The notes below the pieces were generated by a model that worked only from the letters and a program-made list of their open reading frames with translations, was not told the origin of the DNA and searched no databases. Of a stretch of 64,000 nucleotides of DNA, positions 6,056 through 63,036 are shown one piece after another. This DNA is from an uncultured Oscillospiraceae bacterium. Lineage in GTDB: Bacteria > Bacillota > Clostridia > Oscillospirales > Ruminococcaceae. How positions within the stretch are numbered: the stretch's first letter is position 1; every line of letters begins with the position of its first letter. Where the stretch lies: NCBI GenBank assembly GCA_934446355.1, contig CAKSEC010000013.1, positions 2,474 to 66,473 of the forward strand, read 5' to 3'. The translations under genes were made by a program, and so were the position numbers.

Positions 6056-7054
6056 ATGATGGCAGGTGAAGCAATGAAAAAAGCTATTCCGGTAATTATT
6101 GTTGCGGCTATAGCCGCAGCTGCAGCGGCGATCATTTTCGCTATGCAGATCCCGCAGAAAATCGCTTTCTCTGCCGAAGCCGCCAAGTGCGATTACTTCA
6201 GCGGGAACGATGTCAGGATCCCGCAGAAAATCGCTTTCTCTGCTGAAGCCGCCGCATATCTTTCCGAAAAATACGGCGTGAACGGGGATTGCGTCTACTC
6301 ACGCATGGGCTATACCGACTCGCACCGTGATATCCTCGGAAACGGCTATACGGCAGAGTACCCCGACTTTGCGGTTTTTGAGTCGGGAGGAAACAGCATA
6401 GCGGTTCAGCGTAAGGACGTAAGATTCTGCGACGATGGTCAGAATGCGGATTTCGGTTATATTCTGGCGGAGCATTTTGCAGAAAAATGCGGCGTTGATA
6501 TCACCTTTGCGGAGCTTCGCAACTGCTCTAACGGCAGTATACCGGACAGCACGATAACAAATGTTCTTCGCAGCGATAATTCACTGCTGAATAAGGATAA
6601 CATCGAGGATATCCTGCTTACCTTTGCGGATTCACAGCCGCTTCTGGAACTTGCGCTCTATATTCCTGACAAGTACCCCGACCGGCGCGAACTTACCGAC
6701 AAGCTGTCTGCGGGGCTTTTGGAGGTCACCAAAAACGAGGGATTTTCGCTGGTGCGGTATTTCCTTTATTCTGCCGATGAGGAACTTATCGTGAACAGTA
6801 CCCTTGGTGCTTCAAAAGATAAGGAAATAGACAGCCCTGAATACCGTGCACTGAATTTTCCTTATTACTATGCGGCAAATCCTTATCTTCACGGCGTTTT
6901 GAGAATCGAGGGAACCGTGTACTGCGATAAACCGGTGAATACTTTTACGGCGGCAGGCTGGTGCGTTATGGACAGAGGTTACAGCGCAGGTCTTGGAAGC
7001 AACCCCTATGAGGAATGGAACGGCTGGAATATTTATTCGCTCATGGCGGGGTAA
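6056..7054 (+). CDS. membrane-anchored hypothetical protein (alternative start ATG 6074, MKKAIPV)
   Basis: A 332-aa ORF with an N-terminal Ala-rich TM helix. It contains an in-frame internal duplication. Confidence 0.65.
   Translation: MMAGEAMKKAIPVIIVAAIAAAAAAIIFAMQIPQKIAFSAEAAKCDYFSGNDVRIPQKIAFSAEAAAYLSEKYGVNGDCVYSRMGYTDSHRDILGNGYTAEYPDFAVFESGGNSIAVQRKDVRFCDDGQNADFGYILAEHFAEKCGVDITFAELRNCSNGSIPDSTITNVLRSDNSLLNKDNIEDILLTFADSQPLLELALYIPDKYPDRRELTDKLSAGLLEVTKNEGFSLVRYFLYSADEELIVNSTLGASKDKEIDSPEYRALNFPYYYAANPYLHGVLRIEGTVYCDKPVNTFTAAGWCVMDRGYSAGLGSNPYEEWNGWNIYSLMAG
6149..6253 (+). repeat. 36-bp direct repeat (35/36 identical), copies 69 bp apart, in frame
   Basis: ATCCCGCAGAAAATCGCTTTCTCTGC(C/T)GAAGCCGCC occurs at 6149-6184 and 6218-6253. 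It duplicates the peptide IPQKIAFSAEAA. Confidence 0.9.
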
Positions 7055-7206: not shown

Positions 7207-8712
7207 TCAATTCACCATAATATCAAAAGTAGCATTATAAGCGAGGCTGTTTATGTCGATATAAACCGGCTTGCCATCTCCGGCTATCTGCACGAGCGCA
7301 GCGTTCTTCACATTGACAGGAACATCTGTTTCGTTGTCGAGCGTAACGGTATCCAGCAGCACGCCGTCCTTGCTGTAGAAGCTGAATGTCGACTTTCCCT
7401 CTGCGGACAGATTAGCGACGATGCCATTGCAGGAGTAGCCCTTGTATTTTTCTAAATAGGTCTGTGCGGTCGTATAGTCAACGACAATGCTGTTGTTGTA
7501 AGAAAAAAGCACGCCGGGATCAATAAACTTATATGAGCCAAAGAAAGCGATGGCATTCACACGCTTGAAGCCGCTGAGGTCAACGACCGATCTGTCATGA
7601 TTCTGGTCAAGCTTTTCAGGGTCGTTTACCCATTTAACGAACTGGTCGAAAACATCGCTTCCAAATTCATTCTTTAATATGGGTATCAATTCCTGCGAAT
7701 CTATGCCGTCAAGCCTATATCCATATGCAGTCTTAAACTCATCACGCTGAGCGATTCTCATAAAAGCGTCTGTGCCGTGCTGGTCGGTAAGGAACGACAC
7801 AAACCGCCAGCCGTAAAGATACGCTTCCCAGCCCTCCTGCGCAAACAGCGTTTCAGCGTTCTGCGAGGTTATCGCCGTACTGCTGGCGTAATTACTTGCA
7901 CTGTCAAAGTAGTACGGGAATATCCCGCTGTTCATTACCCTTTGAGCGAAGCAGGTCGCAAAGCCCTCGTTCATGACCTTAGTCATAGACGCACCGTTTC
8001 TGAGATGAATGGTGTGACAAAGTTCATGAGTGATTGCAAATCCCTGACCATCATGCGCCAGAAGATCTCCAGGCGATATCGTCGGGCCTGATTCTCCACT
8101 GTATGCGTCTGCAAATTCCGCTTCTGTATCGGTCTTTTTTACGGTTATAGTGACTTTGTCGGAATGAGAGCCGTTTATGAATTTAAGACCTGTTTCCTTT
8201 TCTATTGCGTCGAAAACACGGTTTACGTCGTCAACAATAGTGGACGGCACATATATGCCCTCCGGTATCAGCAGCTGGAATCTGTCAGCTGAAAGCGTTG
8301 TCGCTTTATCCGTTATGTAATATCCCATATCTTCACCCTTGTACAGACTGGGTTTTACGGTAACAGTGCAAGTGTATTTTTTACCGCTGTTTGTCGCCGT
8401 GATTTCAGCAGTGCCCTCTTTCAGCGCAGTGATCTCACCCGCCGAACTTACCTTTGCCACATCGCTGTTGCTGCTGGACCACGTGGTTTTTCCCGCAGCG
8501 TTTTTCAGCGTAAGGGTATAGGTCATGCCGGGGTAAAGCGTTCTCCTGCTGACGCTTAACTTGACCTCAGGCTTTTTCTTCACCGTGATTTTGCAGGTGT
8601 ATTTTTTGCCGTTGTATGTCGCTGTGATTACTGCAGTTCCGTATTTCAGGGCTGTTACCTTACCCTTTGAATTGACCTTTGCCACTGACGGTTTGCTGCT
8701 TTTCCACTGCAC
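7207..8712 (-). CDS. Big_2 (Ig-like) repeat protein with an HEXXH metallopeptidase-like domain; 5' end apparently missing
   Basis: Two Ig-like repeats (KVTALKYGTAVITATYNGKKYTCKITV and EITALKEGTAEITATNSGKKYTCTVTV) and AITHELCHTIHL. There is no signal peptide. The frame is open from 8784 with no ATG, and GTG at 8712 is the first start. Confidence 0.65.
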   Translation of the reverse strand: MQWKSSKPSVAKVNSKGKVTALKYGTAVITATYNGKKYTCKITVKKKPEVKLSVSRRTLYPGMTYTLTLKNAAGKTTWSSSNSDVAKVSSAGEITALKEGTAEITATNSGKKYTCTVTVKPSLYKGEDMGYYITDKATTLSADRFQLLIPEGIYVPSTIVDDVNRVFDAIEKETGLKFINGSHSDKVTITVKKTDTEAEFADAYSGESGPTISPGDLLAHDGQGFAITHELCHTIHLRNGASMTKVMNEGFATCFAQRVMNSGIFPYYFDSASNYASSTAITSQNAETLFAQEGWEAYLYGWRFVSFLTDQHGTDAFMRIAQRDEFKTAYGYRLDGIDSQELIPILKNEFGSDVFDQFVKWVNDPEKLDQNHDRSVVDLSGFKRVNAIAFFGSYKFIDPGVLFSYNNSIVVDYTTAQTYLEKYKGYSCNGIVANLSAEGKSTFSFYSKDGVLLDTVTLDNETDVPVNVKNAALVQIAGDGKPVYIDINSLAYNATFDIMVN

Positions 8713-15207: not shown

Positions 15208-15226
15208 TTTATATTCTCCTAAAAAA

Positions 15227-15406
15227 CAGGGCTGCTAAAGCCAACCCTGCAAGTTTGTCGAAAAGGTATCTTCTTCAGGGTGGCGAGAAAGGCACAGATG
15301 CTAGGAAACGGCATTTCGGCTAGGCTTTGTGCCTGCCGAATATGTCGTTGACGACGCAGATGTGCCTTTATCGACAGCCTGACAGGGCTGTCCGACGGCA
15401 GCCCTG
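15227..15406 (+). repeat. structured intergenic repeat, family 1, copy A (hairpin - core - hairpin)
   Basis: The core is homologous to 16382-16463 and 52581-52776, with conserved loop TAGGCTTTGTGCCT (15321-15334). Flanking hairpins are at 15227-15249 and 15383-15406. Confidence 0.8.
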
Positions 15407-15416
15407 CTTGGTATAT

Positions 15417-16381: not shown

Positions 16382-16463
16382 CAGCTTGTTGAAAAGTCTA
16401 CTGCCAGACTGTCGAGAAGCCCTCAGATCCTAGGAACCCGCATAACGACTAGGCTTTGTGCCT
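16382..16463 (+). repeat. structured intergenic repeat, family 1, copy B (left half only)
   Basis: About 90 percent identical to 52582-52663 up to the loop TAGGCTTTGTGCCT. The right arm is replaced by a promoter. Confidence 0.8.
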
Positions 16464-16491
16464 TGATTTTTTGCGGATTGTATGCTATAAT
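16463..16491 (+). promoter_or_regulatory. sigma-A type promoter of the HxlR-type regulator gene
   Basis: TTGATT (16463-16468), 17-nt spacer, TATAAT (16486-16491). Confidence 0.55.
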
Positions 16492-33966: not shown

Positions 33967-34051
33967 TTGCCGATATGCACGGAGTTCGCCAGAGGCGAAC
34001 GTATGTGCAAGGCATTTTGATTTATAATAAACGCTTTGCGTTTATTATAGC
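33967..34051 (+). repeat. 85-nt hairpin repeat, family 2, copy 1
   Basis: About 90 percent identical to 42913-42997. Hairpins are GTTCGCC-AGA-GGCGAAC and ATAATAAACGC-TTT-GCGTTTATTAT. Confidence 0.85.
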
Positions 34052-42912: not shown

Positions 42913-42997
42913 TTGACGATATGCACGGAGTCCGCCCTCGGCGGACGTATGTGCAAGGCATTTTAATATATAATAAACGCCTTGCGTTTATTATATC
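42913..42997 (+). repeat. 85-nt hairpin repeat, family 2, copy 2
   Basis: The first hairpin is GTCCGCC-CTC-GGCGGAC, a compensatory change relative to copy 1. The second hairpin is identical except for its loop. Confidence 0.85.
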
Positions 42998-52097: not shown

Positions 52098-52556
52098 GAT
52101 CACTATACCGCATGGCGTGAACTGGAAGCGCTTAATTCTGCAGGATATATTCGTGCGATAGGCGTATCGAATTTCGAGCCTGACCGGCTTATCGACCTTG
52201 CTGCCTACAACAGCGTAAAGCCCGCTGTAAATCAGATAGAAACTCATCTTTACTGCCAGCGTCAGAAAGAGCACGAATGGGAAAGAAAATACGGAGTTGC
52301 GCACATGGCATATGCGCCGCTCGGACAGGGACACGCAAACGAAATGTTCTCCGAGCCAGTCGTCTGTGAAATAGCCGCAAAATACGCAAAGACCCCCGCA
52401 CAGATACTGCTGCGCCGCACCATTCAGGACGGTGTTACTGTCATACCGAAGTCGGTACATACAAAGCGTATCGCTGAAAATATCAGCATATTTGATTTTG
52501 AACTATTATTGAATATGCGGTCGCTATTAGGACAGAACCGCTGTTTATTACAAAAG
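52098..52556 (+). pseudogene. aldo/keto reductase (2,5-diketo-D-gluconate reductase-like), internal fragment
   Basis: TAWRELEALNSAGYIRAIGVSNFEPDRL...NQIETH...AYAPLGQG...IPKSVHTKRIAENISIFDFEL. About 100 N-terminal residues and the last roughly 25 residues are missing. Confidence 0.65.
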
Positions 52557-52558
52557 AT

Positions 52559-52798
52559 ATCCACCGGTCCCCCGGTGGATCAGTGTGTTGAAAAAGTCTA
52601 CGACCAGACTAGCGAGAAGCCCTCAGATTCTAGGAACCCGCATAACGACTAGGCTTTGTGCCTGTCGTTATGCGGGTTGTGGCAGGACGCCACAAGTGAA
52701 AACCCCAAGCGCAGCACGACGCTGCGCATTAAAGGTTTTCGCCTTACGACGAAGATGAGGGTTTATCGACAGTCTGATCCACCGGTCCCCCGGTGGAT
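52559..52798 (+). repeat. structured intergenic repeat, family 1, copy C (identical 22-nt hairpin at both ends)
   Basis: ATCCACCGGTCCCCCGGTGGAT at 52559-52580 and 52777-52798 brackets a 196-nt core with five predicted stems. Confidence 0.85.
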
Positions 52799-62885: not shown

Positions 62886-62972
62886 ATCATATTTCTGACA
62901 GATTTCTTTTTACGTCCTTTATGTTTTACCACATATTCTGCAAAAGCTCAACATTTTCGCCCACCTCTCCCC

Positions 62973-63001
62973 TTGATTTTTCTCAAATAATATGTTACAA
63001 T
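62973..63001 (+). promoter_or_regulatory. sigma-A type promoter with extended -10
   Basis: TTGATT (62973-62978), 17-nt spacer ending TGT, TACAAT (62996-63001). Confidence 0.5.
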
Positions 63002-63036
63002 GACATTATGATGAAAATCGAAAGGAGAAAACCACA

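Follow-up and report, generated by a model that had tools for sequence, protein, structure and literature searches.

The window (the whole 64-kb stretch of DNA that was analysed) was searched throughout with a covariance model; three copies of one interspersed element, A, B and C, were found, and no others. The neighbouring genes are ordinary chromosomal ones (among them those for a Macro-domain protein, HxlR regulator, PTS enzyme I, HPr, AraD-type aldolase). For copy A the score was 107.7 bits (+ strand) against 39.8 bits (− strand); for copy C it was 45 bits, in the apical part, and copy B scored weakly. Three occurrences of the 14-nt loop TAGGCTTTGTGCCT were counted (0.27 expected in the window), the third in copy B; folding of the + strand against shuffles gave z = −9.3 (copy A) and −13.8 (copy C). 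The sequence features of copies A and C that a preliminary description of this DNA had listed were found at their coordinates; the basal helix P1, a 3-bp UGC/GCA helix, copy B and the origin of the flanking hairpins as duplicated target are additions to it.

Copy A: The whole element occupies 15251–15381 (+). Its 5′ arm (15251–15275) consists of the terminal repeat a, AAGTTTGTCGAAAAGG (15251–15266), and a 9-nt spacer; a is similar to a′ and to the reverse complement of b. The core rod (15276–15381; covariance model, pair counts) is built from P1 (15276–15286 with 15371–15381), the outer helix P2 (AAAGGCACA, 15288–15296, with TGTGCCTTT, 15361–15369), a tandem G∙A segment (15297–8 with 15359–60), P2b (15299–15301 with 15356–15358), the internal loops UAGGAA (15302–15307) and UGACGAC (15349–15355), and the inner helix P3 (15308–15320 with 15335–15348, one bulged T), which encloses the 14-nt loop (15321–15334) within the apical sequence CUAGGCUUUGUGCCUG (15320–15335), all on the + strand. 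To the left lies a target-derived repeat with the hairpin A-CAGGGCTG-ctaaagc-CAACCCTG-C (15226–15250, stem-loop 15227–15249), which was scored as terminator-like on the − strand and is followed on that strand by TTTTTT and then by the Macro-domain gene with its RBS and ATG. The right hairpin, A-CAGGGCTG-tccgacgg-CAGCCCTG-C (15382–15407, stem-loop 15383–15406), is a diverged duplicate of the left one, the two forming an imperfect direct repeat (15226–15250/15382–15407).

Copy B: This copy (16382–16463, +) retains the 5′ arm and, of the core, the 5′ half; it is 93% identical to copy C (repeat family D1) and stops immediately behind the apical loop. Its broken end borders on the −35 element of the hxlR promoter (TTGATT-17-TATAAT, 16463–16491); the first T of this strong promoter-like site, which also carries TG, is the end of copy B. 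A block 76% identical to the promoter-like site was found at 62971–63003. Copies A and B are fixed in the window's own species (every contig recovered; all strains with the neighbouring proteins).

Copy C: This is a long variant (52581–52776, +) with the 5′ arm at 52581–52604, the core at 52605–52776, and an extra two-hairpin domain (~52679–52746, +) between the 3′ strand of P3 and GACGA. It is enclosed by a 22-bp target duplication that is still perfect, ATCCACCGGTCCCCCGGTGGAT (52559–52580), itself a perfect hairpin, and an identical sequence at 52777–52798. Directly upstream, an aldo/keto-reductase remnant (52305–52652) was noted, the frame of which enters the element; the match is limited to the C-terminal ~50 residues and lies below the Pfam cut-off, and the remnant is probably a pseudogene.

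Other repeats of the window: A second family (D3; 33967–34049 and 42913–42995, 83 nt, 89% identical) combines a GC-rich hairpin (GGAGTTCGCC...GGCGAAC) with a following AT-rich palindrome (TATAATAAACGC..GCGTTTATTATA). A 69-nt tandem repeat (D12; 6148–6253, 97% identical) lies inside the ORF 6056–7054, and a 225-nt-spaced repeat (D2; 8354–8685, 76% identical) inside the ORF 7207–8712(−).

Size and distribution of the family

Species-representative genomes were scanned with the exact pattern CTAGGAA-N(8-30)-TAGGCTTTGTGCCT. The further copies on which the preliminary description had made its reading depend were obtained in this way: at least 108 loci (L numbers below), in about 38 assemblies among the matches listed, with up to 14 loci per assembly among those matches. 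The carriers among the matches listed are almost all Oscillospiraceae/Ruminococcaceae gut MAGs (humans, rabbits, deer, others); CAAGDT01, JBJERM01, CANRKB01 and CAMAGG01 are examples of such lineages. With the covariance model, ~10 additional copies with altered loops were detected in the same loci as the exact-pattern matches. The basic element measures ~131 bp, or ~196 bp with the optional domain, and has no conserved ORF. One copy lies on a 5.8-kb bin contig filed as Escherichia coli (L016), which is almost certainly mis-binned Oscillospiraceae DNA. In two species a copy is located 28 nt upstream of an rpoD/sigA-like start codon (L007:2529–2660, L103:1826–1957).

In many cases a short-read contig terminates within the element, frequently at the invariant loop, so that the repeat evidently breaks the assemblies of carrier genomes. 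Contig ends of this kind were observed at L109:1–117 and, one end each, in L042, L046, L053, L085, L087, L093 and L099.

Rfam 15 gave no match at gathering thresholds over the whole window, as the preliminary description had left to be checked; around copies A and C, with E up to 10, hits were at chance level only (E ≥2, ≤15 bits). The family is absent from the 2.9 million viral contigs of IMG/VR, where a scan with the arm motif gave chance matches only; no copies were found in PLSDB plasmids or GenBank phages, and no filled copies in the JGI metagenome contigs, a collection without these taxa. The loop sequence had no matches in the full text of the literature searched and was absent from the first 200 of the 408 supplementary files of a human-microbiome structured-RNA survey. 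A ~130-base non-coding mobile repeat of gut Oscillospiraceae is thus apparently undescribed in the resources searched.

Secondary structure

The ~105-nt core forms a single rod (P1, P2, P2b, P3, cap). P1 pairs (C)AGGCUGnCGA with UCGnCAGCCU(G) and adjoins a conserved G∙A mismatch; P2 (9 bp) is followed by a symmetric CAGAUGC/GCAGAUG segment able to form tandem G∙A pairs, within which P2b (UGC/GCA, 3 bp) covaries between G-C, U-A and A-U; the internal loop UAGGAA stands opposite UGACGNC, GGAA/UGAC being a second tandem-G∙A option; P3 (13 bp) leads to the invariant cap.

Covariation was evaluated on 89 further copies (84 distinct sequences), which are related, not independent. Over the 84 distinct copies, standard pairs filled 95.0% of the cells, and double-sided changes were found at 28 of the 40 pairs; 518 cells were doubly changed (160 in shuffles), the observed values being reached by none of 500 shuffles, and the covariation score was 0.443 (0.052–0.085 with the partner slid by 1–3 columns). 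P2 occurred as 41 and P3 as 74 distinct helix types, and the loops were near-invariant across copies. As the copies are related, the pair counts are not independent events. The preliminary claim that two helices differ between copies A and C and yet remain complementary was confirmed and extends to the further copies.

Outside the main helices, the apical mini-stem covaries in variant copies (AGGC/GCCU to AGCC/GGCU or AACC/GGUU), and a non-Watson-Crick covariation of loop positions (U27:C82 to G27:A82) was found in 3 copies, CUAGGAA with GACGACGC becoming CGAGGAA with GACGAAGC. One variant carries an extra hairpin within the 5′ loop; 10 copies are of the long form, the conserved two-hairpin domain of which shows covariation of its own.

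Strand specificity and exchange between copies

Non-Watson-Crick pairs, read on the + strand over all helices, were G:T in 196 and A:C in 51 cases. P2 contributed 117 G:T and 1 A:C (48 to 1 when each distinct helix type was taken once), P3 46 G:T and 18 A:C (40 to 18 on the same basis), and P1 32 G:T and 30 A:C, which is symmetric. With RNA parameters, the + fold was more stable than the − fold in 82 of 84 copies (mean difference 12 kcal/mol); with DNA parameters, the + fold was more stable in 78 copies and the − fold in 4. The interior is therefore constrained as a single strand of + polarity, G:T being tolerated, A:C not, and the + fold being the more stable. These data show selection of P2 and P3 on the + strand only, and P1, by its symmetric mismatches, behaves as a DNA-level inverted repeat. 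The view that the + strand fold is selected and not drifting junk, put forward from copies A and C, is borne out by the covariation and by both strand comparisons. A mild excess of + strands on the strand of negative GC skew was also observed (66 vs 38, p = 0.008).

Three comparisons of loci bear on the origin of the compensatory changes. L007 and L103, orthologous copies upstream of rpoD, have flanks 97.5–99% identical and cores just 93% identical, with four fully compensated pair changes in P3; L019 and L028 have cores 100% identical and flanks 80–92% identical; L056 and L097 carry, at one orthologous site, the long and the short form, respectively. Gene conversion or replacement thus contributes to the "compensatory" pattern. 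Accordingly, the compensatory changes first seen between A and C stand as strong covariation, and in part they come from exchange between copies and from non-independent amplification. Neither the strand asymmetry nor the invariant loops nor the loop covariation can be put down to conversion.

Ends and target duplications

The transposed unit runs from 5′-CAGCTTGTYGAAAAAG to TATCGACAGCCTG-3′ (the 3′ end also given as CTTTATCGACAGCCTG-3′). The termini CAG...CTG belong to ~16-nt imperfect inverted repeats with the end motif CAGSYTGTNGAWAAAG; a third, internal copy of the terminal repeat (a′, the 5′ strand of P1) lies 24 nt in, and a single 16-mer consensus underlies a, a′ and the reverse complement of b. 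In the Lapin-019 subfamily, a and b changed together (GTCGA to GTATA). The 5′ arm (a and the ~9-nt spacer) was recognisable in about half of the copies.

Exact junction-anchored duplications of at least 6 bp were sought in 46 copies, and 13 were found (0.4 expected), measuring 6 bp in 4 cases, 8 bp in 2 and 21–30 bp in 7. In copies with an intact arm they adjoin the CAG...CTG ends without a gap. Imperfect long repeats were present in about a dozen more copies, copy A included; flank alignments scored ≥11.5 in 24 of 102 copies and never >9.0 in mismatched-flank controls. Each long duplication is a whole terminator-like hairpin with its loop, repeated in direct orientation; several of the short duplications, as read from their sequences, have a mini-palindrome at the centre (AATT, TAATTA, AATT-TGG-AATT). 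A hairpin abuts at least one side of 55% of copies (7% of random windows). The flanking hairpins vary between loci; they are the insertion target, duplicated in direct orientation, and hence are not part of the element; in this respect the preliminary description, which had counted the terminal hairpins as belonging to it, was in error. The twin hairpins on either side of copies A and C are explained by duplication of a target hairpin on insertion.

Mobility is documented by four identical copies at four sites of one MAG (111.0 bits each), the flanks of which are a perfect 22-bp duplication, a perfect 27-bp one, one of 8 bp, and a hairpin duplication with a single indel. L004 is filled where the orthologous site of L038 is empty and has just one terminator hairpin, with a T-run and a TGTATAAT box after it; this is the only filled/empty pair, and it is without a duplication. 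Between L019 and L028, synteny breaks exactly at the 3′ end of the element. The exact empty site of copy C had no match in metagenome_contigs, a collection without these taxa, and empty sites of hairpin-type insertions were not recovered. Copies without a recognisable arm showed no duplication adjoining a′; they are read as old insertions, in which arm and duplication have decayed and the core is intact. The short form (a′...b) as a separate transposable unit was rejected, as no duplications abut a′. At L072:1700–1790 (−), a copy and a hairpin are followed by a fragment made of a 5′ arm and the perfect complement of a 3′ end, and at L020:4040–4120 two elements stand head-to-head across one hairpin; from such piling of elements around one hairpin (L072, L020), duplicated hairpins seem to stay good targets.

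Search for a mobiliser and exclusion of other identities

Clustering of 1178 ORFs from the 108 loci gave no recurrent neighbour protein other than housekeeping genes. In ~680 kb of flanks of these loci, nothing convincing was found in the search for transposase, RT and HUH motifs, YxDD-motif matches falling in scattered ORFs without recurrence; an autonomous IS with the same ends was not found in these flanks or in the window. Candidates for such an element (inverted pairs of end motifs 0.5–3.5 kb apart) proved to be other MITE copies or host genes; two pairs enclosed pyrF (L060) and an RNase R-like gene (L071), and their motifs were unrelated. The ends of the E. coli H-repeat have no real resemblance to those of the element, and an ISAs1-type origin of the ends (CAGGG) was set aside; a similarity of the element to IS903-like ends is a mere possibility.

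No sigma-70-like promoter was found on the + strand of copies A or C. The orientation of the element (E) towards neighbouring genes was near random (<E< 30, >E< 26, >E> 19, <E> 13), and together with the merely mild skew excess this excludes a leader, a riboswitch and a dedicated terminator. A fixed orientation and position upstream of a gene, which a cis-regulatory RNA (riboswitch, leader, attenuator) should have, was not found. One-sided hairpins were left-only in 18 and right-only in 15 copies; as the two are equally frequent, the downstream hairpin is not kept as the RNA's own terminator, and an sRNA gene with its own terminator was rejected on these counts. A conserved small ORF (ATG...TGA in the core) was rejected because single-base indels shift the frame (105- vs 106-nt cores). 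REPIN/RAYT membership was discarded (duplications present, no recurrent neighbouring protein family), as were an IS200/IS605-derived element or TnpB omega-RNA (TIR and TSD present, no such genes, no Rfam match) and a retron msr-msd (no recurrent adjacent ORF, YxDD-motif matches scattered).

The element has terminal inverted repeats and duplications that directly abut its ends, and it is small, non-coding, multi-copy and polymorphic for presence or absence (L004/L038), as a MITE is; the variable duplication length (6, 8 or 21–30 bp) is atypical for a MITE. Duplication, of variable length, of target inverted repeats is shared with the IS1630 type of the IS30 family; interspersion, direct-repeat flanks and compensatory changes that keep a predicted fold at the RNA level are shared with bcr1. 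That the element might be IS-derived, an outcome that the preliminary description had reckoned with, holds in kind, since it is mobile MITE-like DNA with inverted-repeat ends, but no known IS or Rfam family matches it.

Interpretation

Inverted-repeat ends, abutting duplications and independence of orientation point to a non-autonomous DNA transposon moved in trans. The family of copy A is, on balance, probably MITE-like mobile DNA moved in this manner, with a + strand fold that acts as RNA. Insertion duplicates either 6–8 bp or a whole 21–30 bp hairpin resembling an intrinsic terminator, and the transposase, presumably supplied in trans, would attack an inverted repeat or cruciform symmetrically at its base, like that of IS1630. 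The simplest account of the selection on the + strand fold is an RNA that undergoes processing or binds a protein; as RNA, the fold would most likely be a protein-binding or processing module for persistence or mobility, kept by selection and spread between copies via gene conversion, and the same fold might alternatively be carried by a single-stranded DNA intermediate of + polarity. A protein site of the K-turn type is suggested by the tandem G∙A motifs. Counted against this explanation are the near-random orientation with no + strand promoter seen in A or C, the failure to find a transposase, RT, HUH enzyme or autonomous element in ~680 kb of flanks, and the single filled/empty pair, without duplication, in a set of related copies.

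A closer tie between RNA and transposition, in which the + strand RNA would be needed for the element's own movement as a SINE-like template or as a cofactor or scaffold of a trans-encoded enzyme, is considered unlikely. A similarly small chance is given to genes for small RNAs of the host, acting in trans or as part of an RNP and spread by duplication, with mobility incidental. Loops invariant over about 38 species with covarying helices and optional domains, the constraint specific to the + strand, cores preserved despite decay of the 5′ arm and duplications, and the copy conserved upstream of rpoD in two species would all suit such genes; terminal inverted repeats and target duplications at the ends, identical copies at different sites and many copies per genome would not, nor would the missing promoter (A, C) and the symmetric retention of hairpins (18 left-only, 15 right-only). 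If, instead, a SINE-like + strand RNA were copied into nicked targets by an RT encoded elsewhere, P1 and the terminal repeats should not be DNA-level inverted repeats with symmetric mismatches and co-evolving ends; moreover, the 5′ ends are discrete rather than graded, a 3′ tail is absent, no RT lies nearby in the flanks of the 108 loci, and we know of no bacterial precedent for such a retroelement. It is judged very unlikely, even with the variation of the duplications from 6 to 30 bp, the strand-specific structure expected of an RNA that needs recognition, and the absence of a recognisable 5′ arm from about half of the copies on its side.

Two further readings make do with DNA. The fold might have no function at all, in a neutral palindromic repeat the arms of which stay complementary through gene conversion or hairpin-templated repair; the block of compensated changes between L007 and L103 amid flanks 97.5–99% identical, the identical cores of L019 and L028 within flanks of 80–92% identity, and the long and short forms at one orthologous site speak for it. 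As neither conversion nor repair explains the 117:1 excess of G:T over A:C, and the invariant unpaired loops, the non-Watson-Crick covariation and the conserved optional domain are likewise left unexplained, it is rated as more doubtful still. Least probable of all is handling of the element, as single-strand DNA, by an HUH enzyme (as for REPIN/RAYT or an IS200/IS605-derived palindrome), with the + hairpin as substrate. The DNA-parameter fold does favour the + strand (78 copies vs 4), the orientation is biased relative to local GC skew (66 vs 38, p = 0.008), and REPINs likewise keep their hairpins; but target duplications and terminal inverted repeats are present here, and HUH elements, to our knowledge, make neither. 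No RAYT, TnpA or TnpB gene flanked by copies was found at the 108 loci, and no IS605-associated Rfam family matched.

The uncultured Oscillospiraceae rank among the major bacteria of the gut, and hardly any of their non-coding RNA or mobile-element biology has been described. The family is abundant there (three copies in 64 kb), sits tight against gene ends and start sites, and either duplicates terminators or takes their place; its probable effects are to shape operon boundaries and to break assemblies. The puzzle that it poses is the contrast between transposon-like DNA ends and an interior like that of a selected structured RNA. Knowledge of the enzyme that moves the element, and of the reason why the fold of one strand is protected, could extend the rare insertion of the IS1630 type, by which the whole palindrome is duplicated, to a large new clade, or bring to light an RNA-dependent step in bacterial transposition; should the movement itself depend on RNA, the family would be a new class of RNA-dependent bacterial mobile element and not an ordinary MITE.

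Comparison with known systems

SPRITE of Streptococcus pneumoniae is a ~105-nt interspersed repeat with a structure like a Rho-independent terminator (PMC3184786). Its terminator-like hairpin lies inside the repeat, whereas the hairpins of the present family are locus-specific and target-derived. REP and REPIN sequences are, like the present element, abundant extragenic palindromic repeats near gene ends, the hairpin being preserved across copies. REPINs lack both target duplications and terminal inverted repeats, and they go together with a single-copy RAYT gene that has REPs on both sides. They also carry GTAG/CGTC tags (PMC3733652). None of these REPIN features (tags, tie to RAYT, lack of TSD and TIR) was seen in the present element.

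Correia/nemis elements and other bacterial MITEs have a fixed short duplication, TA in the case of Correia. Correia/nemis (Neisseria), ERIC and RUP resemble the present family in being small, non-coding and multi-copy, with TIRs and target duplications, and they are intergenic, with transcripts that can fold as long hairpins (PMC3184786). For Correia elements and other MITEs, no multi-helix fold with a strand-specific wobble bias, invariant loops and modular domains has been reported.

By analogy, the nearest counterparts are hairpin-duplicating insertion of the IS1630 type and bcr1 of Bacillus, the latter being the closest described system. IS1630 (IS30 family, Mycoplasma fermentans) makes 16–26 bp duplications of inverted repeats (PMC3317919), and ISMhom-1 is comparable (PMC7648426). 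Hairpin duplications of 21–30 bp and mini-palindrome-centred ones of 6–8 bp in the present family are alike in kind. IS1630, however, is an autonomous element of 1.2–1.4 kb with a transposase gene and 27-bp terminal repeats, whereas the present element has no ORF and repeats of ~16 nt; the link is one of behaviour only, no IS30-like gene having been found near the element.

bcr1 (group A bcr, Bacillus cereus group) is a ~155-bp non-coding repeat with 5-bp direct repeats that is transcribed, variably placed between strains and regarded as mobile sequence of a special class whose mobiliser is not known (PMC3184786). Both are interspersed repeats of Firmicutes, flanked by direct repeats and maintained in their RNA-level structure by compensatory changes; a likeness in sequence is not expected. 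The duplication of bcr1 is fixed at 5 bp, that of the present family extends from 6 to 30 bp, up to a whole terminator hairpin; the two-stem cruciform-like fold of bcr1 is replaced by one long rod with invariant loops, tandem G∙A pairs and optional domains; and, unlike bcr1, the present family is sharply split into DNA-like ends and an RNA-like interior.
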